Of a stretch of 38,857 nucleotides of DNA, positions 2,440-38,160 are shown one piece after another. The position numbers were made by a program, and so were the translations under genes. Under the pieces are notes generated by a model. The model searched no databases. It saw nothing but the letters and a program-made list of their open reading frames with translations, and was not told the origin of the DNA. This stretch comes from a virus (Duplodnaviria > Heunggongvirae > Uroviricota > Caudoviricetes). The DNA lies in IMG/VR virus record IMGVR_UViG_2636415906_000002; one strand, 5' to 3'. How positions within the stretch are numbered: the stretch's first letter is position 1; each line of letters begins with the position of its first letter.

Positions 2440-2609
2440 GCACGAAACCTCATGGATGATTCAATACAATGTAGTGGATAAAATTGATCAAATTTCAACC
2501 GAATTCAACTGTTTTATCATTGATTAGAGCGAATTTGGTAGATCTTCGAGGTGTATGATAATCGAGAAGAGATGTGAATTATTTAGCTGATATGACCGAC
2601 AGCTTTCGT

Positions 2610-2659
2610 TATGTGGACTCAATGTCCCCATTTGTAAATGGCTATGCTTAGTCCACATA
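2610..2659. promoter_or_regulatory. 10-bp perfect inverted repeat TATGTGGACT / AGTCCACATA with 30-bp spacer in the integrase - recombinase intergenic region
   Basis: read directly from sequence (2610..2619 and 2650..2659); lies upstream of the serine recombinase start. Confidence 0.3.
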
Positions 2660-2721
2660 GGTTAATGGTGTGATTATTAATTCTTTAACTAAATCAAGAT
2701 AGTTAATCCATCATGGGAGAG

Positions 2722-3951
2722 TTATGCGGCAATAACTTTGCATTTTTGAGACGAAACATAGTCACTCCACCATTGCATGAGAACCACCCGTTCAGTGAGA
2801 TACTCTGCACGATTGTAGGCTGCAATTATTTCATCTTTCTTCGAGTGGGCAAGGGCGGCTTCTAAGACATCAGTCCTAAACTTGCCAGACTCCTCAGCAG
2901 CCGTTCTAGCAATGGATCGCATACCGTGAGCTACAAGCTCACCTCCGAAACCCATACGGATTATGGCCGCATTAGCTGTTTGTTCATGCATGTGATTGAG
3001 TGGAGCTTTGATACTGGGGAACACCCACTCTCTATGCCCGCTGATGACTTTCATTAAATCCAAAACTCGCAAAGCTTCTTTGCTCAGTGGAACTTTGTGA
3101 GGCTTCTTCATTTTCATAAACTCCGCCGGGATGTTCCACATGCCAGTTTCAATATCAATATCTGACCATCTTGTGCGAACAGCTTCACCTGGGCGAACCC
3201 ATGTGAGAAGTTGCCACTCAATCAGTAGCCTTGTTTCCAAACGGATAGAAGCATTGTTTAGAGCAACCAAGAAGCGAGGGAGTTCGGAAGGGGGTAATGC
3301 TGGCATATTCTGTTTTTTTGGCTTGCTGAACCGTTGCCCCAGGTTGTCTGCCGGGTTGAATTCTATGAGTTCTTCTGTTGCTGCATAGCGGAAAATTTCA
3401 TTCAGGCGGGATATGATGCGGCGAAGTGTTTCAAGGACACCTCGTTTTTCTATGGGTTCTAAATGCTGTTTAAGCATTTTAGGGCGAATCTCCTTAATTG
3501 GGGTATCACCCAATGTGGAAAAGATATTTCTCTCTAGGCTTCGCCAGATGTCGTTAGCATGATCTTGGGAGATGCCTGACGTTTTGACTTTCTCATCAAG
3601 CCACTTCTTGGCTACTGCTTGAAATGTATGTTCCGTGGCATCTTTCAGTGCATTGGCTTTTTGGTTGTTATGAACTTGGGGGTCTATACCATTTGTAAGC
3701 AACGACAAGTATTCATCACGTAAAGCTCGTGCCTTCGCAAGTGTAAGGTGAGGATAGGTTCCTAAGCTCACCTTAGTTCGCTTTTTGGTCACAGGCACTG
3801 CATATCTGAAATACCAATTTTTCTTCCCTCCCTTCGCCAGGGGAGCGATTCGCAACAGCAAACCATCGCCGTCAAAAAGGTTAACCTCTTTTTCGGCAGG
3901 TTTGGTGCTTTTGATTTCAGTGTCAGTGAGCTTCTTAGCGATTTTGGCCAT
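2722..3951 (-). CDS. tyrosine integrase, P4/CP4-57 IntA family
   Basis: ORF 2722..4032; probable true start ATG at 3951 giving MAKIAKKLTDTEIK...FDGDGLLLRI...WYFRY, the typical N-terminus of P4-family integrases; C-terminal catalytic region (GMRSIARTAAEESG...AYNRAEYL); sits directly downstream of an ssrA 3-prime-end copy and terminator. Confidence 0.85.
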   Translation of the reverse strand: MAKIAKKLTDTEIKSTKPAEKEVNLFDGDGLLLRIAPLAKGGKKNWYFRYAVPVTKKRTKVSLGTYPHLTLAKARALRDEYLSLLTNGIDPQVHNNQKANALKDATEHTFQAVAKKWLDEKVKTSGISQDHANDIWRSLERNIFSTLGDTPIKEIRPKMLKQHLEPIEKRGVLETLRRIISRLNEIFRYAATEELIEFNPADNLGQRFSKPKKQNMPALPPSELPRFLVALNNASIRLETRLLIEWQLLTWVRPGEAVRTRWSDIDIETGMWNIPAEFMKMKKPHKVPLSKEALRVLDLMKVISGHREWVFPSIKAPLNHMHEQTANAAIIRMGFGGELVAHGMRSIARTAAEESGKFRTDVLEAALAHSKKDEIIAAYNRAEYLTERVVLMQWWSDYVSSQKCKVIAA

Positions 3952-4049
3952 GTTTGGGACCCTCGATTTTAGGACCCATCTTCGTGGGTCCCATTCAGGG
4001 TGCCATAACTCGTAGTTCTCAGCAATTCTCACTAGACTACAATAGACGT

Positions 4050-4247: not shown

Positions 4248-5294
4248 TTAATGTTCTGTCGCCAATCTGTCGCCATTGTAGGTCAACGAAGGTTGAGCCT
4301 TCCCTTTGTTTGTTACAATTTCATCAAAGATAGCTGGATTATTATCTTTCAGTAATCTTGCTAGTATAATGATTTGCCCAGACGAGCCATCATCCTTGAA
4401 TGAAAGGAAATTATCGGTAATATCAAGAATATCAATGGTAAATTTGAAGTAGGTTTCAATTGTATCGCCAAGTTCAATGCTGGACATGAAGTTAGTAATC
4501 ATTTCATATCCATCAAAGTATAAAGTTGCATGTTCATTTAACTCCATGGGAGTTAGGCAAAGCATTCGATTAAGTTCGGATAAGTGTTTTTCTATTGAAT
4601 GAAGAGATTGCATTTGACGGATTAAAACTTCGGCAAACTGAGAGCCACGATTAGATGAATGTATCTTCTCTAGGTTTTTTAGTATATCAACCCAGTGATT
4701 ATTTACTTCACGTATGTATTCTTTATCTGTATTTTTAGGCCGTCCCTTCTCTGGTGAGCTATTTATGAAAATATATCTATATAGATGTATTGGGTAGTTT
4801 ATTTTATAACTTATCTCTTTAGTACCATAATGACGTTCGCGTTTAATGGTTTTGTTAGGTAAATTGGTGAAATAATCAGTAACGAACTTTAGATGGCTAT
4901 AGTAGCTATCAGATAGATTCTTTTGCTTGGTTTCCTCAATTTGTCGGTTTGTTTGAACTGTGCGGTGTATGTTTGCTACGACAGCAACAAATGGTATGGA
5001 CAAAGAAAGTAAGGCGATAGGAAGCTTGCTAATTGCAATGAAATTATTAAAGCCCTCACTATCAAATTGAGGGGAATGTCCAAGCCAGGAAAATATACCA
5101 AAGTATATCGCTGAAAATACAGGAATCCTAAGTGATTGTTTAAATAAGTATTGACTTGTTAATGGCCTTTCATCCATGTTAAAGCCTTTTTTTGATACGC
5201 ATAGATATAATTCAAGGCATATATATAAAAAATATATTATGATAAGTAAGTACGATATCCATGGGTATTGTGGGATATAGTTATTAACAAGCAC
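4248..5294 (-). CDS. membrane-anchored protein of unknown function (att-proximal prophage cargo)
   Basis: 348-codon ORF with GTG at 5294 overlapping int stop by 11 nt (alternative ATG at 5177 gives 309 aa); 2-3 N-terminal hydrophobic helices then about 240-aa soluble domain with no motif I recognise; markedly AT-rich. Confidence 0.55.
   Translation of the reverse strand: MLVNNYIPQYPWISYLLIIIYFLYICLELYLCVSKKGFNMDERPLTSQYLFKQSLRIPVFSAIYFGIFSWLGHSPQFDSEGFNNFIAISKLPIALLSLSIPFVAVVANIHRTVQTNRQIEETKQKNLSDSYYSHLKFVTDYFTNLPNKTIKRERHYGTKEISYKINYPIHLYRYIFINSSPEKGRPKNTDKEYIREVNNHWVDILKNLEKIHSSNRGSQFAEVLIRQMQSLHSIEKHLSELNRMLCLTPMELNEHATLYFDGYEMITNFMSSIELGDTIETYFKFTIDILDITDNFLSFKDDGSSGQIIILARLLKDNNPAIFDEIVTNKGKAQPSLTYNGDRLATEH
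4256..4276. repeat. tandem CTGTCGCCA 9-mers (candidate integrase arm-type sites, P-arm side of attP)
   Basis: CTGTCGCCA at 4256..4264 and 4267..4275; same 9-mer recurs at 37730..37738 and inverted at 37702..37710 on the other side of the att core. Confidence 0.3.
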
Positions 5295-6324
5295 TTTCTA
5301 ATTTTCTCCATCCAAGGTTAGCAAGAGGATTTTTGGTTACAGCATCTTCCAGATGGTCGGGAGCGAAGTGGGCGTAAATCATTGTCATTTTTATATCGAC
5401 ATGGCCCAGAATATCGCGCAGCACCAGTATGTTTCCGCCATTCATCATAAAGTGACTTGCAAATGTATGTCGTAATACGTGTGTGCATTGCCCTTCTGGT
5501 AGCTCGATACCAGCTCGTTTTACCGCACGTTCAAAAGCTTTCCTACAAGGTGTAAATAATTTTCCCCTATTCTTAGGCAGTTCTTCATATAAATCCTTTG
5601 AAATAGGCACTGTTCGGTTTTTCTTTCCTTTAGTCTTGGTATAAGTGATACGGTATTTTGATACCTGATGACTCTGTAGGTTTTCGGCTTCGCTCCAGCG
5701 TGCGCCGGTGGCCAAGCATATTTTTGCAATCATCAGCAGACTGGGGCTTTGAGAATCAGCACAGGCATCCAGCAGACGTTTAATTTCTTCCGGGGTCAGG
5801 AACGCCAATTCACCCTCAGCAATTTTAAATGTTGGCAGCCCAGCAAGCGGGTTGGGGGCTGACCAGTGGCCCAGCTTTTTCAGTGTACCAAAAACAGATG
5901 ATAGGTTGCGCTGTTCAAGATTTACCGTGCGGGGCTTAACGGGCGACATAAGCGTGCCATCTTCATTTCGTACTTCACCTTTTAACCGTGCTTCGCGGTA
6001 TTTCGTAAACTCACCAGCTGTCAGTTCTGAGGCGATGGGATCGCCTAGACCATTACAGATAATTCTAAGTTTCGCCATGAGGCGCTTGGGGTCTGCGAGT
6101 GTTTGACCATACAGGGAATACCACAGCTCAATTAATTCTGATAGATGTCGCCGATCTTCCTTTTCCCCTAGCCATGGTTTTTTGTTCACTTCTTCCATTG
6201 TGAAGCTTTCAAACGCAATGGCTTCGCCTTTGGTAGCAAATTGCTTACGCACGCGCTTACCATTGCGTCCATTGGGATAGCACTCACACAACCATTTTCC
6301 GTTCGGCTGTTTTCTGATGGTCAT
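5284..6324 (-). CDS. int: P2/186-type tyrosine integrase
   Basis: 346 aa; LATGARWSEAENL ... HVLRHTFASHF ... IKMTMIYAHF catalytic R / HxxR / Y pattern; positioned next to attL and downstream of repressor as in P2. Confidence 0.9.
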   Translation of the reverse strand: MTIRKQPNGKWLCECYPNGRNGKRVRKQFATKGEAIAFESFTMEEVNKKPWLGEKEDRRHLSELIELWYSLYGQTLADPKRLMAKLRIICNGLGDPIASELTAGEFTKYREARLKGEVRNEDGTLMSPVKPRTVNLEQRNLSSVFGTLKKLGHWSAPNPLAGLPTFKIAEGELAFLTPEEIKRLLDACADSQSPSLLMIAKICLATGARWSEAENLQSHQVSKYRITYTKTKGKKNRTVPISKDLYEELPKNRGKLFTPCRKAFERAVKRAGIELPEGQCTHVLRHTFASHFMMNGGNILVLRDILGHVDIKMTMIYAHFAPDHLEDAVTKNPLANLGWRKLESAC

Positions 6325-6327
6325 AAG

Positions 6328-6966
6328 TTAGAGGTTCTTGATTACTTTGACTGCACGTCCTACGACTTCCACATCATCTACAGAACATTCAAATGAAGTG
6401 TCATCTTGGTTAACTACTATTTTGTTTCCGGGTATGCGCGCAATTTTGACGATGCTTTTAACTCCGTCCATATCGACTAACCAGAAGCCATTACTGACTT
6501 GTTTAACAGACGTATCCACTACAAAGCTATCATTAGCTGTTTTAACAAATAAAGCGTTGGATGAGTCACCATCGAGCAGGCTGCTATCAAGAAGAATTTC
6601 ATCACTTGGCTGCAGTTCGCCGTTCTTCAGTTCAACACGTTTGATGCTAGGAGCAACGATCTTAGAAAGTGGTCTTACAGTGACGGGAGGTTCATTTTTG
6701 AGATTTGTTTCTTCGTTCTCACACGCATACATATCTCCTTGACCAGTAGCCAGCCATAGAAGGGAAGCTCCTGTTTCAAGGGCACATTGGATTACCCATT
6801 CGGCAGGAAAGCTATCCCTTAAGTATCTGTTAGCCATAGTGCTTTTTGATACTTCCAGATGTTCGCAGAGCTGCTGTCGTGAGCTGAAGTTGTAAGCCTT
6901 AATAAGCCTATTAATCGCATCGCGCCCACCACTATCATTCCCCGCCTTGATTAAACTCATAATCAA
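6328..6966 (-). CDS. cI: immunity repressor, 186 CI-like
   Basis: 212 aa; N-terminal HTH-like region (SSRQQLCEHLEVSKSTMANRYL) and C-terminal domain; divergent from apl/cII across an operator-rich intergenic region; cotranscribed with int. Confidence 0.75.
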   Translation of the reverse strand: MIMSLIKAGNDSGGRDAINRLIKAYNFSSRQQLCEHLEVSKSTMANRYLRDSFPAEWVIQCALETGASLLWLATGQGDMYACENEETNLKNEPPVTVRPLSKIVAPSIKRVELKNGELQPSDEILLDSSLLDGDSSNALFVKTANDSFVVDTSVKQVSNGFWLVDMDGVKSIVKIARIPGNKIVVNQDDTSFECSVDDVEVVGRAVKVIKNL

Positions 6967-9152: not shown

Positions 9153-10006
9153 GCACCATCCTGAAATGGGCGGGAAATAAAACCGCCATTATGTCCGAAC
9201 TGAAAAAACACCTTCCTGCTGGCCCGCGACTGGTTGAACCTTTCGCGGGTTCCTGTGCTGTGATGATGGAGACGGATTACCCCAGCTATCTGGTTGCGGA
9301 TATTAATCCTGATTTAATCAACCTCTATAAAAAGGTTGCCTCTGATTGTGAATCGTTTATATCTCGCGCCAGAGTTTTATTTGAGATCGCAAACAGGGAG
9401 GTGGCTTATTACAACATAAGGCAGGAGTTTAATTACTCCACTGAAATTACTGATTTCATGAAAGCGGTATATTTCCTGTATCTCAATCGTCACGGTTACC
9501 GTGGTTTATGTCGCTATAACAAGAGCGGGCATTTCAACATTCCCTACGGTAATTATAAAAATCCGTATTTTCCTGAAAAAGAAATTCGCGCATTTGCAGA
9601 GAAAGCCCAGCGTGCAACGTTTATCTGCGCAAGCTTTGATGAAACGCTGGCGATGCTGCAGGTGGGGGATGTGGTGTATTGCGATCCGCCGTATGACGGT
9701 ACGTTTTCCGGCTATCACACTGATGGTTTCACTGAAGATGACCAGTATCACCTGGCATCCGTTCTTGAACATCGGTCATCAGAAGGACATCCGGTCATTG
9801 TTTCTAACAGTGATACATCCCTGATCCGTTCGCTGTATCGCAATTTTACTCACCACTACATCAAGGCAAAACGCAGCATCGGTGTAGCAGCTGGTGAGAG
9901 TAAATCTGCAACAGAAATCATCGCTGTTTCCGGGCCGCGCTGCTGGGTGGGATTTGATCCTTCGCGTGGCGTGGATAGTTCTGCCGTGTACGGAGTGCGT
10001 GCATGA
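9149..10006 (+). CDS. dam: DNA adenine methyltransferase (Dam / D12 class)
   Basis: [15 protein letters not shown] and DPPY motifs; RBS GGAGG; start at 9149 inside ORF 9089..10006. Confidence 0.85.
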
Positions 10007-12417
10007 GCCATGCTGATATGAACAACTGCAGCGGCTTTAACAAGGTCGCCGCAGCATTCTCATGGAACAGCCCGAAAAAGGCCATTAACCCTTATCTGGA
10101 CCCGGCGGAAGTTGCGCCGGTTTCTGCGCTTTCAAACCTGATCACTCTGTACGCTACCGATAACGAGCAGGAACAACTGCGCCGCGAGGCACTGAGTGAT
10201 CAGGTCTGGGAGCGTTATTTCTTTAATGAATCCCGTGATCCTGTCCAACGCGAAATGGAGCAGGATAAGCTCATTAGCCGGGCAAAGATGGCGCATGAGC
10301 AGCAGCGTTTTAATCCAGACATGGTCATTCTGGCTGACGTCAACGCCCAGCCTTCCCATATCAGCAAGCCGCTGATGCAACGTATTGAATATTTCAGCAG
10401 CCTGGGCAGGCCAAAGGCTTATTCCCGCTATTTGCGTGAGACGATTAAGCCATGTCTGGAACGACTGGAGCATGTACGCGACAGCCAGCTATCTGCATCT
10501 TTTCGTTTTATGGCAAGCCATGAAGGGCTGGACGGTCTGCTGATCCTGCCTGAAATGAGTCAGGATCAGGTGAAACGCCTGTCTACCCTTGTCGCTGCGC
10601 ATATGAGCATGTGTCTTGATGCCGCTTGTGGTGATTTGTACGCCTCCGATGATGTTAAGCCAGAAGAAATCCGCAAGACATGGGAAAAGGTGGCTGCAGA
10701 AACCCTGCGACTGGATGTCATACCGCCTGCGTTTGAGCAACTCCGCCGGAAAAGAAACCGCCGCAAACCTGTGCCTTATGAACTCATTCCGGGTTCGCTG
10801 GCGCGTATGCTGTGCGCCGACTGGTGGTATCGGAAATTATGGAAGATGCGTTGCGAATGGCGGGAAGAGCAGTTGCGTGCTGTCTGCCTGGTCAGCAAAA
10901 AAGCATCTCCCTATGTCAGCTATGAAGCCGTGATGCATAAACGTGAGCAGCGCCGTAAGTCGCTGGAGTTTTTCCGTTCTCATGAACTGGTGAACGAAGA
11001 CGGCGACACGCTGAACATGGAGGATGTGGTAAACGCCAGCAGCAGCAACCCGGCGCATCGCCGCAACGAGATGATGGCCTGTGTTAAAGGCCTGGAGCTT
11101 ATCGCGGAAATGCGTGGTGACTGCGCCGTTTTCTACACCATCACCTGTCCGTCACGTTTCCATTCCACGCTAAATAACGGCAGGCCAAACCCGACCTGGA
11201 CAAACGCGACGGTAAGACAAAGCAGCGATTATCTGGTCGGCATGTTTGCTGCATTTCGTAAGGCTATGCACAAAGCCGGGTTGCGCTGGTATGGCGTGCG
11301 GGTGGCTGAGCCGCATCATGACGGCACAGTTCACTGGCACCTGTTGTGTTTCATGCGCAAAAAAGACCGCCGCGCCATTACTGCATTGTTGCGTAAGTTT
11401 GCCATCCGAGAAGACCGCGAGGAGCTGGGCAATAACACGGGGCCACGCTTTAAGTCTGAGCTGATAAACCCGCGCAAAGGAACGCCGACAAGCTACATTG
11501 CGAAATATATCAGTAAGAATATTGACGGGCGTGGTCTGGCTGGCGAGATCAGTAAGGAAACGGGTAAATCCCTGCGTGATAACGCTGAATACGTTAATGC
11601 CTGGGCGTCTCTGCATCGTGTTCAGCAATTCCGCTTCTTTGGCATTCCGGGGCGTCAGGCTTACCGTGAACTGCGATTGCTGGCTGGTCAGGCGGCAAGG
11701 CAACAGGGTGACAAAAAAGCAGGTGCGCCGGTACTGGATAACCCGCGCCTTGATGCCATCCTGGCTGCTGCTGATGCTGGTTGTTTTGCCACCTACATCA
11801 TGAAGCAGGGCGGCGTACTGGTTCCCCGCAAATATCACCTCATCAGAACCGCTTATGAAATCAACGAAGAGCCAACCGCCTATGGCGATCACGGTATTCG
11901 TATTTATGGCATCTGGTCACCCATTGCAGAGGGCAAGATCTGCACTCATGCAGTGAAGTGGAAAATGGTTCGTAAGGCCGTTGACGTTCAGGAGGCGGCA
12001 GCCGACCAGGGCGCTTGCGCCCCTTGGACTCGTGGCAATAACTGTCCCCTTGCTGAAAATTTGAACCAACAGGAGAAAGATAAATCAGCTGATGGGGACC
12101 CCAGAACGGACATTACCAGCATGGATGACAAGGAGTTGCACGATTACCTGCACAGTATGAGCAAAAAAGAGCGCCGGGAACTGGCAGCAAGGTTATGCCT
12201 GGTGAAACCGAAACGGCGTAAAGACTACAAACAGCGAATTACAGACCATCAGCGACTGCAGCTCGTGTATGAGCTGAAGTCCAGAGGATTTGATGGCAGC
12301 GAGAAAGAGGTCGATTTACTCCTTCGCGGAGGCAGTATTCCGTCAGGAGCAGGCCTGCGTATCTTCTATCGGAACCAGCGTTTGCAGGAAGATGATCAGT
12401 GGCGGAACCTGTATTAA
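10003..12417 (+). CDS. A: replication initiation protein A (rolling-circle nickase, P2 gpA family)
   Basis: 804-aa protein in the P2 A position, translationally coupled to dam (ATGA overlap). Confidence 0.9.
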
Positions 12418-13227: not shown

Positions 13228-13321
13228 CGCGCGCTGAGATATGAATTAGTAATAGTTGTTTTAATCTATCTTGTTAAGTAAATTAACGATCAACCCATGG
13301 TCATGTCTAGGGAATGATGAT

Positions 13322-15103
13322 ATGAATTTTGATGCAACTCCTTTAAATATTAAAAATATACTTTCTGTTAAACAGCGTTATGTGATTCCACGGAATCAAC
13401 GAGAATTTAGTTGGGAAAAGTTACAACTTGATGAATTGTGGCAAGACATAATAAGAAATATAAAATTAAATCCCAAAGGGGATGACTTTGAATTCAATGA
13501 GTACTTTATTGGTACAATTGTATTGTCTGGTGCTGACAGTGATAATGTTTTGGAGATTGTTGATGGTCAGCAGCGTTTCAGTGTTATTACAATTCTACTT
13601 TCTTTAATTTCTAGGTTTTTAAGAAAAAATGGGAAGGCCGAATTTGCTGATGATATTTTTAAAACATATATCGTAACCGCAAATCAGACGTTCAATAGAA
13701 ATTCTGTCAGTTCTAATGGCGACTCAGTAGTTGAGAAGCTTTCTAAAAATAGTGACAGGGCTTTTTTTAAACTAAAATTCCAAGATAGAGTTGAGCATAA
13801 AGCTGATGTGACTTGCGATGAAGATAAAAAGATTCAATATGCTGGGTTGTATTTAAGTAGAAAGCTAGGAAAGAAAGCATTATGTTCTTCTTTGTTGCGT
13901 GACGGTGCAGTAAAGTATAAAAAGGAAGATTACCTTTTTTGCTTGAATGCCGTTTACAATATGGTTACTAATTATCTTAAATTAGTAAGGATATCAGTAG
14001 GCAAGGAAGATGACGCGTATGATATTTTCGAGGTTTTGAATGCAAGGGGAATAAACTTAAGCTCCCTTGATCTGATTAAAAATAAAGTTTTCCAGAGTTG
14101 TATTGAAACATATCCAATAGATAAAGCCAAAGAGAAATGGGATTATATTACTAATTGCATCGAAGCTAGAGATAGTAACGCTACAATGGTTGATTATGTC
14201 AGGTGTTGGTGGCTTTCTAAGTTTAATTATATAGGTGAAGATCAACTATACCGTGCCTTTAAAAGAGAGATAAATGATGGTGTTTATGGATTAACTGCAA
14301 TTTCATTTTTGGATGAGTTGCATAAAGATGTTGATTTATATTGTAAGATAATTTCTCCAGATATTGATGATTGGCCTCAACAGGATCAGCGAGATATTTA
14401 CAATTCACTTAAAGCATTTGAAATATTCAATGTTTCAATCCCTCGCCCATTCATTTTGTCATTATTAAGAAAAAGAAGAGATAAATCTAGAAGTCTTTCG
14501 CAAAAAAGTTTAATAGAGTGTCTAATGTGTTTAGAGAGATTCCACTTTAGATTTAATGCTATTTGCCGATTAAGACCCTCTGGCATAGACGCCAAGTATT
14601 CAGTATTAGCAGTAAGCCTTGATAAAGCTACTAATAAACGTAGTATCGAATCAACCATTAGTGAAGCAATAGCATACTTTTCTGCGAAAAGTCCAAATGA
14701 AAAAGTATTCAATGAGGCATTTGTTAAAAATTTATTTTATACAAATAAAAAAGCCTCCCAGCGTAAGCTCATAATGTATATTTTTGAACGTTTTGAAAAG
14801 AAATTGCGAGGAACTAATGAGTTAAAATTAGACTTAGTTTCACTCGAGCATATTGGTGCACAAAGTAGTTTTGACTCAGAGGTTGTTGGATTAATGGGGA
14901 ATCTTCTTCCTCTTTGCTTTACTTTGAATGAATCATGTAAAAATGATAGCTTAAGTAAAAAAATAAACGAGTATAAGAAGTCAAACCTTAAGGTGGTTAA
15001 TGAGTTTATTGATGAGTATTCATCTAACGATGAGGAATGGAATGCCCAAAAAGTTCAGATTAGAACATTATCTATGTCAGCGAAGGCCTATAATATAATC
15101 TAA
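13322..15103 (+). CDS. DUF262/DUF1524 two-domain nuclease, GmrSD/BrxU-like type IV restriction-type defence protein
   Basis: 593 aa from ATG 13322; N-terminal DGQQR motif (13562..13576) typical of DUF262 ParB-like NTPase domain; C-terminal LEHIGAQ ... GNLLPL ... NESCKN His-Me finger-like motif (E509/H510 at 14846..14851); AT-rich; own terminators on both sides. Confidence 0.7.
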   Translation: MNFDATPLNIKNILSVKQRYVIPRNQREFSWEKLQLDELWQDIIRNIKLNPKGDDFEFNEYFIGTIVLSGADSDNVLEIVDGQQRFSVITILLSLISRFLRKNGKAEFADDIFKTYIVTANQTFNRNSVSSNGDSVVEKLSKNSDRAFFKLKFQDRVEHKADVTCDEDKKIQYAGLYLSRKLGKKALCSSLLRDGAVKYKKEDYLFCLNAVYNMVTNYLKLVRISVGKEDDAYDIFEVLNARGINLSSLDLIKNKVFQSCIETYPIDKAKEKWDYITNCIEARDSNATMVDYVRCWWLSKFNYIGEDQLYRAFKREINDGVYGLTAISFLDELHKDVDLYCKIISPDIDDWPQQDQRDIYNSLKAFEIFNVSIPRPFILSLLRKRRDKSRSLSQKSLIECLMCLERFHFRFNAICRLRPSGIDAKYSVLAVSLDKATNKRSIESTISEAIAYFSAKSPNEKVFNEAFVKNLFYTNKKASQRKLIMYIFERFEKKLRGTNELKLDLVSLEHIGAQSSFDSEVVGLMGNLLPLCFTLNESCKNDSLSKKINEYKKSNLKVVNEFIDEYSSNDEEWNAQKVQIRTLSMSAKAYNII

Positions 15104-15148: not shown

Positions 15149-16183
15149 TTAACAGTTTAAGGCATAAGTTTTAAAGTTAACTACTTTCTCACCAAGCCAG
15201 TGATTTAGTTCCTTTAGTCGTTTCTGCAATGGTATTAACTCATTACGAACAAAAACGAGACTGGCCTTCTCCACATCCCCAAACCCCCCAACATTATTCG
15301 GCAAAATTCCCATCATCTGCGGCGGTACGCGGTGTGCAGCCATCATGTCGTCCCGGCTCACGTTCTTGATGTTCAGAAATTCATCTTTCGCTGCGACTTC
15401 TGACAACGGGATGATCTGAAGCCCGTCCTTTTTGCCGTTAGGCGAGTACATAAACAGGTTGCGGAAGTTGCCAGGGCCTTTGGCGCTTTTCATCGCGTTG
15501 CGGAGGTTGTTCACATCTTCCTGGTTCTGCGCGGCGTCGGTCATATACATGATGAAGCCTGCATGACTGCCGTTAATGTAATACTTGCGGCGGAACAGCG
15601 TGGCAGACTCGTTGAGCAGGGCGGATGGAATAGCAGAAAGATAACCGGGCAGGCCGTAGATCTCCTGGTTGATGTCCGGTTCCATCAGATGAAAGATGCT
15701 GCCTTTCGTGAACTGATATGGCTGCGTGGTCATACCGTATTGCACAAACCAGTAGGTATCCAGGTCTAACCCGCGTCGGGTGTATTTTGCCAGGGCAGGT
15801 TCAAGGGCGATAACTTCACCGAAGCGGTTCGTGCGTTTCTCCAGGTAGGCGTTACCAAATACCAGATAGTCCTGCACAAAACGCGAAAAAGCCTGCTGGC
15901 TGAGCAGCGGATGAGGGATGTAGGTGCTGGTCAGAATGTTGCACTTTACTGCAATCGGGGAACTATGATGAACGGCAGCGCGGAAGGTGCGCGCCAGTCC
16001 GTCAAAGCTGACGGGCGGCTCATACCAGCGGTCCATCTGTACGCATTCCACATAATCCAGCAGTTCTCGGCGGTCCAGAACAGGAACGGGATCGCCGAAG
16101 CTGAATGCTTCGGCTGTAGTTTGACTTTTAAGCTGGATCTGTTTCGTCGCCGCAGCGCGGTTCTTCTTACTCTTTCCCATCAA
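15149..16183 (-). CDS. Q: portal protein
   Basis: 344 aa; P2 gpQ position and size, overlaps terminase stop. Confidence 0.9.
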   Translation of the reverse strand: MMGKSKKNRAAATKQIQLKSQTTAEAFSFGDPVPVLDRRELLDYVECVQMDRWYEPPVSFDGLARTFRAAVHHSSPIAVKCNILTSTYIPHPLLSQQAFSRFVQDYLVFGNAYLEKRTNRFGEVIALEPALAKYTRRGLDLDTYWFVQYGMTTQPYQFTKGSIFHLMEPDINQEIYGLPGYLSAIPSALLNESATLFRRKYYINGSHAGFIMYMTDAAQNQEDVNNLRNAMKSAKGPGNFRNLFMYSPNGKKDGLQIIPLSEVAAKDEFLNIKNVSRDDMMAAHRVPPQMMGILPNNVGGFGDVEKASLVFVRNELIPLQKRLKELNHWLGEKVVNFKTYALNC

Positions 16184-23963: not shown

Positions 23964-24542
23964 ATGAACGCACAATTAACCGAAATCATGCGCCTTATCA
24001 CCAACCTGATCCGCACAGGGGTAGTCACCGAAGTGGACAGGGAAAACTGGCTTTGCCGGGTGAAAACGGGCGAGCTTGAAACCAACTGGATCAGCTGGCT
24101 GACGCTGCGTGCCGGGAATGCCCGTACATGGTGGCGACCATCGGAAGGTGAGCAGGTGGTGCTGCTGAGTCTGGGCGGCAATCTGGAAACCGCCTTTGCG
24201 CTGCCCGCTGTCTATTCGAATCAGTTCGCACCACCGTCGACGTCGGCGGACGCCTGCGTGACAGAACATCCTGACGGTGGCTGGTTTGAATACGAACCCG
24301 CCACCGGGCGCTGGTATGTCAGGGGCATCAAATCAATGGTCATTGAGGCTGCTGACAACATCACCATGAAAACCAGTGAGTTTGTACTGGAGGCTGACCG
24401 CACGCGCATTAACAGCGAAGTGGTGATCAATGGTGGCGTTACCCAGGGCGGCGGAGCGATGAGTTCTAACGGGATCGTGGTTGATGCGCATCAGCATACT
24501 GGCGTCCTGAAAGGCGGCGATACAACCGGAGGCCCGGTATGA
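23964..24542 (+). CDS. V: baseplate spike / assembly protein
   Basis: 192 aa, P2 gpV position. Confidence 0.85.
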   Translation: MNAQLTEIMRLITNLIRTGVVTEVDRENWLCRVKTGELETNWISWLTLRAGNARTWWRPSEGEQVVLLSLGGNLETAFALPAVYSNQFAPPSTSADACVTEHPDGGWFEYEPATGRWYVRGIKSMVIEAADNITMKTSEFVLEADRTRINSEVVINGGVTQGGGAMSSNGIVVDAHQHTGVLKGGDTTGGPV

Positions 24543-24898
24543 CGCTTTATAGCGGGATGAACAATACCAGCGGCAAAGTCATTACTGATATTGATCATCT
24601 GCGCCAGTCGGTGCGGGACATTCTGCTGACACCGCAGGGTAGCCGCATTGCCCGCCGGGAATATGGTTCCCTCCTGTCGGTTTTAATAGATCAGCCACAA
24701 AATCCGGCATTACGCCAGCAGGTCATGTCGGCAGTGTATGTGGCGCTGAGTCGCTGGGAGCCACGGCTGACGCTGGATTCCATCACCATCAACAGCAACT
24801 TTGACGGTTCTATGGTGGTGGAGCTGACCGGGCGGCGGAATAACGGTGTGCCTGTGTCCCTTTCCGTATCAACAGGAGCAGAGAATGGCAGTGATTGA
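24539..24898 (+). CDS. W: baseplate protein (GPW/gp25 family)
   Basis: 119 aa, ATGA overlap with V. Confidence 0.85.
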   Translation: MTLYSGMNNTSGKVITDIDHLRQSVRDILLTPQGSRIARREYGSLLSVLIDQPQNPALRQQVMSAVYVALSRWEPRLTLDSITINSNFDGSMVVELTGRRNNGVPVSLSVSTGAENGSD

Positions 24899-25793
24899 CC
24901 TTTCGCAGTTGCCTGCACCGCAGATTGTGGATGTGCCGGACTTTGAGACGCTGCTTGCCGAACGCAAGGCCCAATTTGTTGCGCTTCATCCAAAAGATGA
25001 GCAGGAAGCCGTGATCCGCACGCTGGAACTGGAATCTGAACCCGTCACTAAATTGTTGCAGGAGAACGCTTACCGTGAGTTGCTTCTGCGCCAGCGCATT
25101 AACGAAGCCGCGCAGGCGGTGATGGTGGCTTACGCGATGGGCGGCGATCTTGACCAGCTCGCTGCCAACTACAACGTGACACGCCTGACGGTGACGCCTG
25201 CTGATAATGATGCTGTGCCGCCCGTTGCAGCTGTGATGGAAAGCGATGAAGCGTTACGCCTGCGTGTGCCTGCAGCCTTTGAAGGGCTTTCTGTTGCGGG
25301 GCCAACTGCAGCTTATGAATTTCATGCCCGAAGTGCCGACGGTCGGGTAGCGGATGCCAGTGCAACCAGCCCGGCACCTGCAGAGGTGGTGCTGACTGTC
25401 CTTAGCCGCGAAGGCGATGGAACTGCAGAAAAAGACCTGCTGGACGTGGTGGAAAAAGCTCTGAACAGTGAGAACGTCCGCCCGGTGGCTGACCGTCTTA
25501 CGGTTCGCAGCGCAGAAATCATCCCGTATCGCGTGGAAGCCACCATTTTTCTCTATCCGGGACCGGAAGCAGAGCCGGTAATGGCAGCGGCAAAAGCCAG
25601 TCTGCAGAAGTACATTGCCAGCCAGACGAGGCTTGGTCGGGATATTCGCCGTAGCGCCATCTTTGCTGCTCTGCATGTTGAGGGTGTTCAACGTGTGGAA
25701 CTGGCTTCTCCGCTGGCGGATGTGGTCCTGAACAAAACACAGGCGGCATCATGTACGCAGTGGAGCGTAACCAACGGAGGAACGGATGAATAG
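24885..25793 (+). CDS. J: baseplate wedge protein
   Basis: ATG 24885 with RBS AGGAG; 302 aa as P2 gpJ. Confidence 0.85.
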   Translation: MAVIDLSQLPAPQIVDVPDFETLLAERKAQFVALHPKDEQEAVIRTLELESEPVTKLLQENAYRELLLRQRINEAAQAVMVAYAMGGDLDQLAANYNVTRLTVTPADNDAVPPVAAVMESDEALRLRVPAAFEGLSVAGPTAAYEFHARSADGRVADASATSPAPAEVVLTVLSREGDGTAEKDLLDVVEKALNSENVRPVADRLTVRSAEIIPYRVEATIFLYPGPEAEPVMAAAKASLQKYIASQTRLGRDIRRSAIFAALHVEGVQRVELASPLADVVLNKTQAASCTQWSVTNGGTDE

Positions 25794-35299: not shown

Positions 35300-35781
35300 T
35301 GATGGTGCTGGGATTGTACGTGTTTATGCTGCGCACCGTTCCGTATCAGGAACTGCAGTATCAACGCAGCTGGCGACATGCGGCAAACAGTCGGGTAAAC
35401 CGACGTCCGTCCACGCAGTTTCTGGGACCGGAAAACGACATGCTGACGCTTTCCGGTGTTCTTATGCCGGAAATAACAGGCGGCAGGCTGTCGTTGCTGG
35501 CACTGGAGCAGATGGCAGAACAGGGGAAAGCATGGCCCCTGATTGAAGGCAGCGGCACGATTTACGGCATGTATGTGATTGAGGGACTGAATCAGACTAA
35601 AACGGAGTTTTTCCGCGACGGTATGCCGCGCCGGATTGAGTTCACCCTGTCGCTCAAACGAGTGGATGAATCCCTGTCCGATATGTTCGGTGATCTCAGT
35701 GCGCAACTGAATAATCTGCAGGACACGGCAACGTCTGCCTTAAGCGATATCAGTAAAACGGTGGGAGGGCTGCTGTCGTGA
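35296..35781 (+). CDS. U: tail protein U
   Basis: 161 aa, ATGA overlap with T. Confidence 0.85.
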   Translation: MMMVLGLYVFMLRTVPYQELQYQRSWRHAANSRVNRRPSTQFLGPENDMLTLSGVLMPEITGGRLSLLALEQMAEQGKAWPLIEGSGTIYGMYVIEGLNQTKTEFFRDGMPRRIEFTLSLKRVDESLSDMFGDLSAQLNNLQDTATSALSDISKTVGGLLS

Positions 35782-36878
35782 ATTTCAGCTCAGAACTGCT
35801 TAACAAAGGCAACAAAACTCCCGCATTCAGCATCAGTATTGAGGGCAGGGATATCACCACTGTGCTGGATAACCGCCTGATGAGTTTGACGCTGACGGAT
35901 AACCGGGGCTTTGAAGCGGACCAGCTTGATCTGGAGTTGGATGACGCTGACGGAAAAATCGTGCTGCCGCGCCGTGGTGCGGTCATTACGCTGGCGCTGG
36001 GCTGGAAGGGGCAGCCGCTTTTCCCGAAAGGGGCATTCACAGTGGACGAGATTGAATACACTGGCGCACCGGACCGCCTGACTATCCGGGCGCGAAGTGC
36101 TGATTTTCGGGAAACGCTGAATACCCGCCGTGAAAAATCGTGGCATAAGACCACCGTCGGGGAAGTGGTGAAGGAAATAGCCGCGCGGCACAAGCTGAAG
36201 ATGGCACTGGGTAAAGACCTGTCGGATAAGCCCGTGGAGCATATAGACCAGACTAATGAGAGTGACGGCAGTTTTCTGATGCGGCTGGCGCGACAGTACG
36301 GTGCCATCGCGTCGGTGAAAAATGGCAATCTGTTATTCATCCGGCAGGGGCAGGGCAAAAGCGCCACTGGTAAACCTCTGCCAGTGATCACTATCACACG
36401 CAAGGACGGCGACAGTCACCGCTTTACCCTGGCAGATCGCGGAGCCTACACGGGCGTAATTGCCAGCTGGTTGCATACCCGCGAACCTGCGAAGAAAGAA
36501 AGCACCACGGTGAAGCGTAAGCGCAGAACTAAGAAGCAGAAGAAAGAGCCAGAAGCGAAGCAGGGCGATTACCTGGTGGGTACGGATGAAAACGTGCTGG
36601 TACTTAATCGCACTTATGCCAACCGGAGCAACGCCGAACGAGCGGCGAAAATGCAGTGGGAACGCCTGCAACGCGGCGTTGCGTCATTTTCGCTACAACT
36701 GGCAGAAGGGCGGGCAGATCTCTACACGGAAATGCCTGTGAAGGTCAGTGGTTTTAAACAGCCGATAGATGATGCGGAATGGACCATTACGACTCTGACA
36801 CATACCGTCAGCCCGGATAACGGTTTTACAACCAGTATTGAACTCGAAGTGAAGATTGATGATCTTGAAATGGAATAA
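35778..36878 (+). CDS. D: tail protein D (late control D family)
   Basis: 366 aa, last tail gene before ogr. Confidence 0.85.
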   Translation: MNFSSELLNKGNKTPAFSISIEGRDITTVLDNRLMSLTLTDNRGFEADQLDLELDDADGKIVLPRRGAVITLALGWKGQPLFPKGAFTVDEIEYTGAPDRLTIRARSADFRETLNTRREKSWHKTTVGEVVKEIAARHKLKMALGKDLSDKPVEHIDQTNESDGSFLMRLARQYGAIASVKNGNLLFIRQGQGKSATGKPLPVITITRKDGDSHRFTLADRGAYTGVIASWLHTREPAKKESTTVKRKRRTKKQKKEPEAKQGDYLVGTDENVLVLNRTYANRSNAERAAKMQWERLQRGVASFSLQLAEGRADLYTEMPVKVSGFKQPIDDAEWTITTLTHTVSPDNGFTTSIELEVKIDDLEME

Positions 36879-36946
36879 AGTGTTCTCAATATTGATATTT
36901 TGTGTATCATTACAATGATTCTGATAGCAAAGGTAGGGATCTGGAT

Positions 36947-37165
36947 ATGATGAATTGTCCAAAGTGTGGTCATGCGGCACACACAAGGAGCAGTTTTCAA
37001 GTAACTGAAAGCACCAAAGAGCGTTACTGCCAGTGCCAAAATATTAACTGCGGGAGCACTTTTGTTACTCATGAAACAGTGGTCCGGTTTATTGTGACAC
37101 CCGCACTGATTGCTACTGCTCCTCCACATCCATTGCCAGGTGGTCAGGGGCATATGAATTTTTGA
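36947..37165 (+). CDS. ogr: Ogr/Delta zinc-finger late-gene transcriptional activator
   Basis: 72 aa MMNCPKCGHAAHTRSS...CQCQNINC...HPLPGGQG, the Cys4 pattern of P2 Ogr. Confidence 0.85.
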   Translation: MMNCPKCGHAAHTRSSFQVTESTKERYCQCQNINCGSTFVTHETVVRFIVTPALIATAPPHPLPGGQGHMNF

Positions 37166-37172
37166 GAAAGAG

Positions 37173-37195
37173 AACCTGCTACGGCAGGTTTTTAT
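37173..37195 (+). terminator. intrinsic terminator after ogr
   Basis: AACCTGC-TACG-GCAGGTT followed by TTTTA. Confidence 0.5.
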
Positions 37196-37674
37196 TCATC
37201 TGGGATCTCACCCGTTTCAAGAAAATGTATAAAGCCAGGCTCATCTATGATGATTGTGCCTTTCATCCTGGCTGCCGATACTTTTGATGGGCCTGCATTG
37301 TAACCGCAACAGAGCATCTGAAGGCTTTGGGTTACAGAGGTTCTTACCGTTAATCCTTGTTCATTCGCCTTATCAACCAATCTTTCTTTATCTGCTTTCT
37401 TAAATCCGGTGAAACACACATCGAATGTATTTTTTTTCGGACCAGACTGCTTAGTGAGATGTGAGTAGCTTTCGGGGAGGAATGACGCGCATTCCTGAAT
37501 GGCTTGTTCTGGTGAATCGTACTGTTTAAGAATGCGGTCTTTTCGGAAGGTTTTTATTCGATCGGTGTTCTTACAAATGCCCTGTATATGATTTTCGCTA
37601 TAACTGATGCTCTGTATAGAGTGAACACCGATACGACCATTTGCATTGATGTAAACAAAGTGAAGTTCTTCCAT
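37192..37674 (-). CDS. small WYL-like + BRCT-domain protein (att-proximal prophage cargo)
   Basis: 160 aa, RBS AAGAGG; C-terminal FDVCFTGF...GLTVRTSVTQ...LCCGYNAGPSKVSAARMKGTIIIDEPGFIHFLETGE aligns by eye to the LigA-type BRCT domain; N-terminal RIGVHSIQS...TFRKDRI resembles a WYL-domain core. Confidence 0.6.
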   Translation of the reverse strand: MEELHFVYINANGRIGVHSIQSISYSENHIQGICKNTDRIKTFRKDRILKQYDSPEQAIQECASFLPESYSHLTKQSGPKKNTFDVCFTGFKKADKERLVDKANEQGLTVRTSVTQSLQMLCCGYNAGPSKVSAARMKGTIIIDEPGFIHFLETGEIPDE

Positions 37675-37700
37675 GTGAAACCTCTTTGCATGATTTCAAG

Positions 37701-37739
37701 ATGGCGACAGGCAAGATGGACGCAAAAGTCTGTCGCCAT
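37701..37739. promoter_or_regulatory. 10-bp perfect inverted repeat ATGGCGACAG - N19 - CTGTCGCCAT upstream of the BRCT gene (candidate operator / integrase arm sites)
   Basis: read directly; shares the CTGTCGCCA 9-mer with 4256..4275. Confidence 0.35.
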
Positions 37740-37758
37740 TTTGCCGCCACTACCAAAG

Positions 37759-37787
37759 AAAAAGGGGCTACGCTTTCACGTAACCCC
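37759..37787 (-). terminator. intrinsic terminator for ssrA supplied by the prophage arm
   Basis: minus-strand GGGGUUACG-UGAAAG-CGUAGCCCC followed by UUUUU, 11 nt past the tmRNA 3-prime end. Confidence 0.55.
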
Positions 37788-37793
37788 TTGATT

Positions 37794-37842
37794 TATTTGG
37801 TGGAGCTGGCGGGAGTTGAACCCGCGTCCGAAATTCCTACAT
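37794..37842. repeat. attR: 49-bp direct repeat overlapping the 3-prime end of intact ssrA
   Basis: identical to 4114..4162. Confidence 0.85.
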
Positions 37843-38160
37843 CCTCGGTACTACATGCTTAGTCAGTCTTTACATTCGCTTGCCAGCTGCGGACGGACAC
37901 GCCACTAACAAACTAGCCTGATTAAGTTTTAACGCTTCAACCCCAGGCAGGGCTTCCACGCGATCTCTTTTGGGTTTGACCTCTCTTGATCCCCGTCCTA
38001 AGAGCGGAGGCTAGGGAGAGAGGGCTCTAAGCAGGTTATTAAGCTGCTAAAGCGTAGTTTTCGTCGTTTGCGACTATTTTTTGCGGCTTTTTACGAGGCC
38101 AACCGCCCCTCGGCATGCACCTTGGGTTTCGCAAATCCCGTCGAATCCAGAATCAGCCCC
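37798..38160 (-). ncRNA. ssrA: tmRNA (SsrA), 363 nt
   Basis: reverse complement reads GGGGCUGAUUCUGGAUUCGACGGG ... tag-reading-frame region ... GGGUUCAACUCCCGCCAGCUCCACCA, matching enterobacterial tmRNA from memory. Confidence 0.95.

Follow-up and report, generated by a model that had tools for sequence, protein, structure and literature searches.

Genes carried by prophages as cargo include lambda rexAB, P2 old/tin/fun and K139 glo, and the hotspots at which P2 holds such cargo are known (PMC9122126, PMC13586616). BRCT domains of the LigA/RFC1 type bind DNA ends with a 5'-phosphate; for the BRCT region of RFC1, these are 5'-phosphorylated dsDNA ends. In phages, one counterpart of a free-standing BRCT domain is subunit B of the T5-like split NAD+ ligases (PDB 9hu3_B; phrog_3498), which contributes its LigA-type BRCT in trans. 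WYL domains, in turn, bind ssDNA in CapW, PafBC and DriD (PMC11662680, PMC11804915, PMC12041258), in CapW through a pocket with residues S144, R164, R168 and R184 (PMC11662680), while one WYL protein binds c-di-GMP (PMC11880434). The WYL survey by Makarova, Anantharaman et al. 2014 (PMC4012209) names BRCT among the domains combined with WYL, but only as a list entry, with neither a function nor a genomic context nor a link to phages, and a full-text literature search for BRCT and WYL in connection with prophages, defence or exclusion found no functional study. As to where cargo resides, the int-att and int-primase regions of P2 are reported to be minor defence hotspots (PMC13586616); keyword searches of that paper gave no match for the ogr-att slot.

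Here, we analyse a gene in exactly this slot, at one end of a P2-like prophage in a 38.9-kb stretch of viral DNA (38,857 nt; hereafter the window). It encodes a small cytoplasmic protein with two domains, a WYL-type barrel and a BRCT.

Results

Locus and selection

The 160-codon minus-strand ORF with a good ribosome-binding site that had been called in the first-pass annotation is present as described (Table 1). Because the 49-nt att repeats lie at 4114-4162 and 37794-37842, it is the final prophage gene before attR. The terminator upstream of it serves the rebuilt 3' end of ssrA, and the hairpin is kept across genera with compensatory changes. A promoter search between this terminator and the ATG found no sigma-70 consensus promoter, so that expression of the gene in the lysogen is something we infer.

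Table 1. Features of the WYL-BRCT locus and of the att regions, in window coordinates
Feature	Position	Strand	Remark
WYL-BRCT CDS	37192..37674	-	ORF with ATG start, 160 aa
WYL-like Sm/SH3 beta-barrel, residues ~3-52	37519..37668	-	
BRCT domain, residues ~84-155	37210..37425	-	Invariant T89-G90 and K131 (phosphate-pocket positions)
Shine-Dalgarno AAGAGG	37681..37686	-	6 nt ahead of the ATG; read from the sequence
ogr	36902..37165		Ogr_Delta match, E=1.5e-20; converges with the WYL-BRCT gene
Hairpin shared by ogr and the convergent WYL-BRCT gene	37173..37190	.	Probable bidirectional terminator
Second, inverted 10-mer copy (CTGTCGCCAT on the minus strand)	37701..37710	-	E. coli lineage only
Tandem TGGCGGCAAA-ATGGCGACAG	37730..37749	-	Kept across genera; includes one inverted-repeat arm
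Intrinsic terminator	37762..37789	-	Between ssrA and the WYL-BRCT gene; from the phage arm
attR core	37794..37842	.	49-nt repeat of 4114-4162; overlaps the ssrA 3' end
ssrA (tmRNA)	37798..38160	-	
Two tandem 10-mer copies, one with 1 mismatch	4256..4276	+	Beside the attL core

The protein is matched over its full length by PHROG 2561 (E=2.5e-77). Purifying selection on the gene is evident from dN/dS values of 0.11-0.17 in comparisons with copies from E. coli phages and of 0.07 with Plesiomonas, the synonymous sites of the other intergeneric pairs being saturated. Degraded prophages retain the gene as well (loci L052, L059 and L060), a retention at the prophage end that may just reflect position.

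Domain architecture

The N-terminal domain is an Sm/SH3-like five-stranded barrel to which solved WYL domains are the most similar structures, and its invariant or near-invariant residues are Y8 and T42-F43-R44-x-D46 of the KTFRKDRI motif. What had been proposed as a WYL core thus holds at the level of the barrel fold and of the near-invariant FRxDRI motif, but not as a Pfam match of the protein itself, which does not hit PF13280 at E<=10; the model matches 4 of 49 close and 24 of 59 distant relatives (best 1.2e-8). Searched against the PDB, the N-terminal profile returned PafBC alone and not significantly (E=1.8), so the WYL assignment required the structure. Only the arginine of the FRxDRI motif has an evident counterpart in the CapW ssDNA pocket (R44 is near-invariant, and R47 is present in the consensus). 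No conserved basic residues were found in barrel strands 2-3, and the RWHVR-type arginines of CapW have no visible equivalent. With the pocket kept only in part, the ligand of the barrel may not be ssDNA.

A flexible linker of ~30 residues joins the barrel to a LigA/RFC1-type BRCT domain, which had been recognized by eye and is borne out here by its invariant residues and by the beta-alpha-beta-beta-alpha-beta-alpha fold of the family, which typically spans ~75-95 residues. Pfam PF00533 scores 19.5 bits for the protein itself against a cutoff of 21.3, is matched by 35 of the 49 relatives at E<0.01 (best 2.1e-6), and the family profile finds the BRCT domains of RFC1 and LigA at 4e-5. T89, G90 and K131, which do not vary among the 49 sequences, line up with FTG and AGPKK in yeast RFC1, so the phosphate-binding S/T-G ... 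K pocket appears to be kept at the sequence level. Identity is just 20-25%, so the domain is not a recent capture of host LigA.

The absence of HTH and enzymatic domains, also noted in the first-pass annotation, is confirmed: profile searches matched no HTH family, the barrel begins directly at the N terminus and is followed by the BRCT, and no enzyme, membrane or DNA-sequence-reading domain was detected in the protein. Compared with CapW, BrxR, DriD and PafBC, it has no wHTH before the barrel and no WCX after it; lacking both, it cannot be a transcription factor of their kind. Compared with LigA and RFC1, its BRCT is the terminal domain of a 160-aa protein without adenylation, OB, Zn-finger or clamp-loader modules. 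It shares with T5-like subunit B the small size, the phage origin and the LigA-type BRCT, but subunit B has no WYL domain, and the prophage analysed here encodes no partner ligase subunit.

Several database labels were considered and rejected. PHROG 2561 and some RefSeq phage records carry the name NAD+-dependent DNA ligase, yet LigA models match only with their last ~100 positions (TIGR00575, 549-650 of 652; phrog_3869, 533-651 of 656). None of an adenylation domain with the KxDG lysine, an OB fold, a Zn finger or an HhH domain was found, and 160 aa are too few for a ligase catalytic core. The label DEDDh exonuclease in phage Cartapus traces to NF004719, which is matched only in its BRCT tail (229-307 of 331) and scores 25.9 bits for our protein against a cutoff of 389. 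The PADLOC family PDC-S48 matches the BRCT at 1.8e-7, and down to 1.9e-13 for relatives, but the match is confined to positions 335-406 of 411 (~322-406 across relatives) and is likewise limited to the BRCT in 10 longer relatives: the C-terminal ~70 residues of PDC-S48 resemble this domain, whereas the remainder has no counterpart. Matches to SspE cover only the BRCT or a short stretch. Apart from the BRCT-only hit to PDC-S48, the protein matched no known defence family.

Longer relatives

Do relatives of the protein carry the output domain that it lacks? Among the top 150 representatives, 59 are longer proteins, in which Pfam gave BRCT and WYL only and no fused enzymatic domain; their extensions are either TM segments or soluble domains of no known family. 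TM helices, belonging to several unrelated families, are predicted in 40 of the 59, as opposed to none of the 49 stand-alone WYL-BRCT members. The latter figure is the useful control; shuffling gave no information on the TM calls, given the hydrophobic composition of the extensions. About a quarter of the distant relatives are predicted TM fusions. In some marine bacteria, a 'DGYAAGW...WTQG' partner domain is fused or adjacent to the WYL-BRCT module; this domain, looked for in the window and at all loci, is absent here. A structurally similar protein of 162 aa is found in Vibrio phage SSP002, which has been described as lytic; if that holds, it would favour a function in the DNA metabolism of the phage itself over the competition role proposed below.

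Repeats flanking the att cores

The 10-bp perfect inverted repeat reported upstream of the ribosome-binding site has no mismatch, with ATGGCGACAG at 37701-37710 and CTGTCGCCAT at 37730-37739, but it is better explained as part of a set of probable integrase arm-type sites. An alignment of the upstream regions from seven loci, together with a motif search, delimits the conserved tandem (Table 1). The window holds three exact copies of the 10-mer, all ~55-115 bp from an att core; allowing <=1 mismatch, there are 9 copies against 2.75 expected, a number reached in 0 of 100 shuffles. Across attP, the copies at 4256..4276 are the putative counterparts of these arm sites. The alternative that the repeat acts as an operator or a regulatory hairpin was considered and rejected, since the 10-mer flanks both att cores and just the tandem form is kept across genera.

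Distribution and genomic neighbourhoods

Among public assemblies, 1857 indexed blocks contain the identical protein, and 2652 relatives exist among protein cluster representatives. As the gene occurs in ~3% of complete E. coli genomes (175/5426), was found by tblastn in 28 phage records compared with 479 for the gpD homologue, and has a GC content of 41.6% in a prophage of 51%, it is accessory and not core. The records of Fels-2, RE2010 and SopEPhi, compared with positions 36900-37800, show similarity in the att part alone and thus do not have it. It is also missing from Klebsiella phage Kp4865-2, which nevertheless shares Int (100%), CI (99%) and gpD (98%); there, the ogr-att interval holds a retron-type reverse transcriptase (PADLOC RT_VI, 2.5e-18). 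The slot is, in other words, a variable cargo slot with a known defence-type alternative occupant.

In other lineages, the gene follows a repressor gene. In Xenorhabdus and a metagenomic phage, it stands between CI and Int, with 2-35 nt from one gene to the next; CI precedes the gene in Rahnella, in Mannheimia PHL101 (where 4 nt separate the two and an RBS is annotated) and, as an S24-type CI, in Pseudomonas; and Serratia has the order repressor, Flk-like gene, WYL-BRCT gene, Int. Three unrelated types are represented among these repressors (186-type CI, S24 LexA-like CI and a small HTH_3 protein), which points to shared expression and not to a specific physical partnership. Outside prophages, the gene lies directly after a McrB_N-HNH nuclease gene in Pelagibacteraceae and directly after an AbiGi gene in Pseudomaricurvus, and in an integrase-bearing island it is found beside Mrr_cat and DNA methylase genes.

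The first-pass annotation had suggested that the gene forms one sensor and membrane-effector cassette with the membrane-protein gene at 4248..5294, a cassette that spans attP and is split by integration. The geometry behind this idea is correct: both genes point the same way once the phage is circular, with 85+49+119 = 253 bp from the stop of the membrane gene to the ATG of the WYL-BRCT gene. The membrane protein also weakly matches a PADLOC 2TM effector model (8e-5), 2-TM proteins come after int in the CI-gene-Int operons, and of the 13 E. coli genomes in which the membrane gene occurs, at least 7 are also among the WYL-BRCT matches. However, these 13 genomes stand against 175 of the 5426 for the WYL-BRCT gene, and the co-occurrence proposed as a check is not consistent: 80 IMG/VR contigs, many of them >30 kb, carry the WYL-BRCT gene and 9 match the membrane gene, but only 3 are shared. 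In 48 genome loci, no homologue was found within 10 kb, and each gene is phage-borne without the other. Kp4865-2 has the membrane gene (99%) and no WYL-BRCT gene; in 10 of the 10 contexts listed, the membrane gene adjoins an identical Int; the Cartapus and S88 prophages hold unrelated non-membrane proteins of 401/407 aa in the post-int slot; and the Cartapus post-int gene recurs in Salmonella phage RE2010, again without a WYL-BRCT gene. Even when the phage is circular, a terminator parts the two genes. The distribution largely refutes the split cassette, tempting as it was: the genes assort independently and the post-int slot varies, and the reading keeps hardly any probability. What survives is its general form, as many distant relatives have TM segments fused to the WYL-BRCT module, although these are not homologous to the membrane gene.

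Discussion

From fold and location, we tentatively propose, with confidence a little short of even, that the gene is an autonomous single-gene cargo encoding a lysogen-expressed binder of DNA structures for phage-phage competition, with a function independent of the membrane gene across attP. P2-like phages (Peduoviridae) and some other temperate phages would carry it as a 'moron' in the lysogeny or att-flanking part of their genomes. The protein would be made in the lysogen, here by read-through from ssrA or from an unrecognised promoter, and in other lineages presumably by co-transcription with the CI repressor. Its target would be a DNA structure and not a sequence, most plausibly ssDNA next to a 5'-phosphorylated duplex end, a structure that gaps, resected ends and the intermediates of rolling-circle replication or of cos ends can offer. 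Its use to the prophage would lie in superinfection exclusion or defence against other phages: the protein would either occupy or sequester these intermediates, so that end sealing or replication is blocked, for instance, or recruit a host factor through its BRCT. In being optional, of lower GC and placed in the repressor/integrase/att region, the gene resembles lysogen-expressed cargo beside repressors and att sites, and its replacement by a defence-type gene, the retron-type RT, in a sister phage resembles known prophage cargo.

The position of the gene immediately 3' of the repressor gene in many lineages would also suit a sensor of DNA damage or replication stress that tunes the lysis-lysogeny switch by acting on CI, Int or the switch region. 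WYL regulators do sense ssDNA after damage (PMC11662680, PMC11804915, PMC12041258), and in Roseobacter prophages cI/BRCT modules replace quorum-sensing modules (2026 preprint 10.64898/2026.07.02.736140) and are assumed in that preprint to sense DNA damage. We regard a switch sensor as rather unlikely: the adjoining repressors are of three unrelated types, of which those of the S24 type already sense damage via RecA, ~94% of P2-like phage records do without the gene, some copies have no repressor nearby and sit beside HNH, AbiGi or Mrr genes, many relatives are membrane-anchored, and the protein has no domain that reads DNA sequence.

Alternatively, a protein that binds nicks, gaps or ends could serve the phage's own DNA transactions by recruiting or assisting LigA or repair proteins of the host, be it on injected cos ends, on the strand-exchange products of Int or on rolling-circle intermediates, in analogy to the separate BRCT-bearing subunit of the T5-like split ligases. 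This is unlikely for a gene that is sporadic among near-identical phages, gives way to a retron-type RT in a sister phage, lies in the lysogenic and not in the early replication operon, and is dispensed with by P2 and 186; moreover, some relatives are TM-fused, and some chromosomal copies lie beside restriction or Abi genes. The same binding could, in a purely inferential scheme, be turned against host immunity: a decoy that covers or sponges the ssDNA and DNA ends made during induction or infection, so that CapW/BrxR-type WYL-controlled immune operons, RecBCD and other end sensors stay untriggered. What the protein shares with CapW/BrxR is the ligand-sensing domain and not the HTH output domain, a CapW-controlled CBASS restricts prophage induction (PMC11662680), and, if expressed from the lysogenic operon as its position suggests, it would be present before induction. 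Yet the ssDNA pocket is conserved only in part, and the restriction/Abi neighbourhoods and TM fusions fit defence better than anti-defence, which makes a decoy very improbable.

Returning to the exclusion cargo, we can extend it to the family only as a speculation that we consider doubtful: WYL-BRCT modules could be a so far unrecognised class of sensors of DNA structure, either effector-less or tethered to the membrane, with which prophages and genomic islands exclude incoming DNA. If so, the stand-alone form would bind to ssDNA/5'-phosphate junctions in the genomes of phages that superinfect or replicate, for example stopping LigA from sealing cos ends, and the TM-fused forms would act likewise on the membrane or translate sensing into damage to it.

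The gene is common yet mislabelled as a ligase or an exonuclease. In P2-like prophages integrated at ssrA, the analysis draws attention to the space between ogr and att as a site for cargo, where a retron-type RT can be found as well, and it corrects the wrong reading of a cassette split across attP. The WYL-BRCT protein combines two types of nucleic-acid-recognising domain without an output domain; its function would reveal how a sensor-only protein acts, be it by sequestration, recruitment or membrane tethering.

Results

The WYL-BRCT gene is a real gene, borne by a P2/186-like prophage of 33.7 kb that is integrated in the 3' end of ssrA. Its coordinates and its ribosome-binding site (AAGAGG, 6 nt ahead of the ATG) are as first read from the sequence. 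It converges with ogr, from which it is separated by a hairpin, and shows a dN/dS of 0.11-0.17 against the E. coli phage copies; for intergeneric homologues, which are ~70% identical, dN is ~0.2 and synonymous sites are saturated.

Coordinates of features in the window and in the comparison loci (L-numbers)
Feature	Location	Strand	Remarks
Second mobile element	883..4032	-	just beyond attL
Large serine recombinase	883..2439	-	Resolvase + Recombinase
P4-type tyrosine integrase	2722..4032	-	Arm-DNA-bind_3 + Phage_int_M
att repeats, 49 nt	4114-4162 and 37794-37842
AT-rich membrane gene	4248..5294	-	left prophage end; probably 4248..5177
One-mismatch copy of CTGTCGCCAT	4256-4265		tandem neighbour of third copy
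CTGTCGCCAT, third copy	4267-4276
Int	5284..6324	-	left prophage end
CI	6328..6966	-	left prophage end
gpA	10003..12417
610-aa ORF	13271..15103	+	between gpA and portal gene
Portal gene	15149..16183
gpD	35778..36878	+	right prophage end
ogr	36902..37165	+	right prophage end
Hairpin	37173..37190
WYL-BRCT gene	37192..37674	-	160 aa
CTGTCGCCAT, inverted pair	37701-37710 and 37730-37739
Tandem TGGCGGCAAA-ATGGCGACAG	37730-37749
Intrinsic terminator	37762-37789
tmRNA (ssrA)	37798..38160	-
Reverse transcriptase, Kp4865-2	L079 (OK490418.1) 45788..46561	+	FMDD motif; PADLOC RT_VI 2.5e-18
401-aa gene, Cartapus	L051 23583..24788	-	annotated 'putative RES protein, NAD+ binding domain'
'DGYAAGW...WTQG' domain	L017 10502..11098; L012 9443..10489; L048 8545..9033
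275-283-aa proteins after int	L065 8504..9355; L068 8522..9349		overlap int stop
210-aa 2-TM protein, Rahnella	L062 7500..8132
AIPR family protein and 469-aa protein, S88	L169 13467..15167 and 24033..25442

The encoded protein is flexible. Its two domains are a barrel of the WYL kind and a BRCT of LigA/RFC1 type in which the phosphate pocket is intact. Both folds, and the absence of an HTH or enzymatic domain, had been proposed in the first-pass annotation, and all three hold. The window protein itself scores 19.5 bits with Pfam BRCT, slightly short of the 21.3 required; BRCT is matched by 35/49 diverse relatives, the family profile hits the BRCT domains of RFC1 (4.2e-5) and LigA (4.9e-5) among solved structures, and residues 85-154 adopt the canonical BRCT topology in an AlphaFold2 model (pLDDT 91.1). 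T89, G90 and K131, the positions of the BRCT phosphate pocket, are invariant in the family and correspond to FTG and AGPKK in RFC1. WYL went undetected by sequence methods in the N-terminus of the window protein; among relatives, Pfam WYL is matched by 4/49 and 24/59 (best 1.2e-8). Residues 1-74, modelled separately (pLDDT 91.4), gave WYL domains as their best structural matches, with PafBC at 6.5 and CapW with ssDNA at 6.2, followed by BrxR (5.9 and 5.8) and DriD with ssDNA (5.4), and generic Sm/Hfq barrels scored lower. Family searches found no HTH and no catalytic domain in the window protein, which belongs neither to the wHTH-WYL-WCX regulators nor to the DEDDh exonucleases, the ligases or PADLOC PDC-S48. 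The label 'DNA ligase' (PHROG 2561 and some RefSeq phages) is wrong, as it reflects a match to the BRCT tail of ligase, and so is 'putative exonuclease' in phage Cartapus, which matches the BRCT tail of that enzyme.

An exhaustive profile search returned 2652 representatives at E<=1e-3, and 59 of the best 150 of these are longer than about 228 aa. The extra part carries predicted TM helices in 40 of the 59 (37 N-terminal, 3 C-terminal; two or more helices in 31/40), drawn from several unrelated TM families; TM helices were called in 0/49 stand-alone members, and no enzymatic fusion was seen among the longer relatives. That membrane anchors were joined to the module repeatedly and independently speaks against a soluble transcription co-factor and suggests that the TM-fused relatives act at, or through, the membrane. 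Another recurrent partner is a soluble domain of ~200 aa with the motifs LIAxFxDGYAAGW, LDIKLTP, WTQG and ...LLQTG, which is fused N- or C-terminally to the WYL-BRCT module or encoded by an adjacent gene. This domain is absent from the window and has no Pfam or PADLOC match.

By its genomic settings, the gene belongs to the part of the genome concerned with lysogeny or to that around att. In ssrA-type phages of enterobacteria its place is the ogr-att interval, the same as in the window. P2-like phages of Xenorhabdus, Rahnella, Serratia, Brenneria, Hafnia, Parasalinivibrio, Mannheimia and metagenomes carry it in the lysogeny operon, directly 3' of the repressor and usually ahead of int, and the intergenic gaps are a few nucleotides long. 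When the window phage is circular, CI is followed by Int, cargo, attP and the WYL-BRCT gene, again in the same orientation. In Pseudomonas prophages it follows an S24 (LexA-like) repressor. Outside prophages, the gene before it encodes an McrB_N-HNH nuclease in a member of the Pelagibacteraceae and, in Pseudomaricurvus, an AbiGi protein; in a SUP05-type bacterium it sits on an integrase island adjoining Mrr_cat and a DNA methylase. The gene is optional cargo: by tblastn, 28 phage records contain it vs 479 with a gpD homologue, and its GC content is 41.6% vs 51% for the prophage. In the Klebsiella sister phage Kp4865-2, which shares Int, CI, gpD and the membrane gene with the window, a retron-type reverse transcriptase of 257 aa replaces it in the ogr-att slot.

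Three E. coli chromosomes (L052, L059, L060) contain degraded prophages at ssrA, whose large internal deletions have taken out the tail and tape-measure genes, but in which an intact, identical WYL-BRCT gene is kept beside ssrA; ogr is kept in L052 and L060, and L059 has a KAP NTPase insertion. Where Xenorhabdus-type phages (L065, L068) have the operon CI, WYL-BRCT, Int, the protein encoded after int has two TM helices at its N-terminus and a C-terminal part rich in Lys, Glu and Ile, and the Rahnella 2-TM gene lies directly 3' of the WYL-BRCT gene; none of these 2-TM proteins has a Pfam or PADLOC match.

The first-pass annotation had further proposed that the gene and the membrane gene, which lies in the int-att slot, form one sensor-effector cassette that integration splits. 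Their distance in the circular form, put at ~250 bp, is 253 bp. In the public gene calls the membrane gene (34% GC) starts at an internal ATG (MDERPL...), giving a protein of 309 aa. One TM segment is clearly predicted in it, and immediately upstream of this lies another hydrophobic stretch; the protein has a weak PADLOC 2TM-effector match (8e-5) and no Pfam or PDB match. An identical Int is accompanied by the membrane gene in 10/10 contexts among the matches listed. The WYL-BRCT gene and the membrane gene do not travel together: they occur in 175/5426 and 13/5426 complete E. coli genomes, respectively, and IMG/VR holds 194 contigs with a WYL-BRCT relative and 9 with the membrane protein, of which 3 are shared with the best 80 of the 194 (many >30 kb). 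Kp4865-2 has the membrane gene (99%) with an identical Int and a 99% CI, and an HMM search found no WYL-BRCT gene there; Cartapus and the prophage of E. coli S88 have the WYL-BRCT gene, but unrelated non-membrane proteins of 401/407 aa after int. Since each gene occurs in phages without the other, the two att-flanking slots vary independently. The split-cassette model thus fails the refutation test set for it, which leaves the most striking part of the original claim without support. The Cartapus int-att gene is found in only 11 E. coli genomes, and Salmonella phage RE2010, which has no WYL-BRCT gene, carries an identical copy; the product of the Cartapus gene has no Pfam match at E<=0.01 and is 30% identical to SPbeta YopC (RefSeq: RES domain-containing) and 47% to its SopEPhi counterpart.

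The inverted repeat upstream of the gene is present as described. Its 10-mer, CTGTCGCCAT, has exactly three copies in the 38.9-kb window, and the distance to an att core is about 55-115 bp for each of these and for the one-mismatch copy. The tandem TGGCGGCAAA-ATGGCGACAG is conserved at homologous loci of six other genera or lineages, even where the att site differs, and the inverted partner occurs only in the E. coli lineage. Such a layout is what would be expected of the arm-type sites of a tyrosine integrase to either side of the attP core. An operator of the WYL-BRCT gene is disfavoured, as the 10-mer stands beside both att cores and only the tandem is conserved. A conserved intrinsic terminator between ssrA and the gene comes from the phage arm and completes the rebuilt ssrA; between it and the gene there is no sigma-70 consensus promoter.

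The second mobile element lies directly outside attL, which indicates that the ssrA site is occupied in tandem by two elements; in other genomes, integrases with nSTAND/SIR2 or YobI-ATPase genes behind them are found at this position. The 610-aa ORF, a GmrSD/SspE-like nuclease by its matches to the DUF262 protein 9jfl_B (8e-9) and the SspE N-terminus, is located in gpA-gpQ, the main P2 defence hotspot according to a recent survey (PMC13586616). In P2-like prophages, the same survey gives two minor defence hotspots, int-att and int-primase, and keyword searches of it did not find the ogr-att slot. The S88 prophage has an AIPR family protein among its tail/baseplate genes, and its gpA-portal hotspot is occupied by a hypothetical protein of 469 aa; just past its attL lie a PD-(D/E)XK nuclease, a GIY-YIG protein and a DUF262 protein.

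Discussion

What could a protein with two sensing domains do for a prophage? RFC1 uses its BRCT domain to bind 5'-phosphorylated DNA ends, and on this basis the WYL-BRCT protein may do the same. The WYL proteins CapW, PafBC and DriD bind ssDNA (PMC11662680, PMC11804915, PMC12041258), which makes ssDNA a candidate second ligand; however, only one of four residues of the CapW ssDNA pocket is evidently kept, and one WYL protein has c-di-GMP as its ligand (PMC11880434). We tentatively favour a role in phage-phage competition or exclusion, in which the protein would be made in the lysogen, bind a DNA structure joining ssDNA with a 5'-phosphorylated duplex end, and either occupy such intermediates or recruit a host factor.

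Other readings appear weaker. A damage sensor for the lysis-lysogeny decision seems rather unlikely; a 2026 preprint presumes that cI/BRCT modules in Roseobacter prophages are damage-responsive regulators (10.64898/2026.07.02.736140). That the protein helps the DNA metabolism of the phage itself is doubtful, even with a structurally similar 162-aa protein in Vibrio phage SSP002 in its favour, and an anti-defence decoy would be quite improbable. Least probable is the cassette split across attP, with Kp4865-2, Cartapus and S88 all speaking against it.

The WYL+BRCT combination was listed without comment in 2014 (PMC4012209), and our literature searches on WYL-BRCT proteins found no functional study. 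The gene is best described as prophage hotspot cargo that combines two known sensing domains without an output domain: widespread, mislabelled and mechanistically puzzling.
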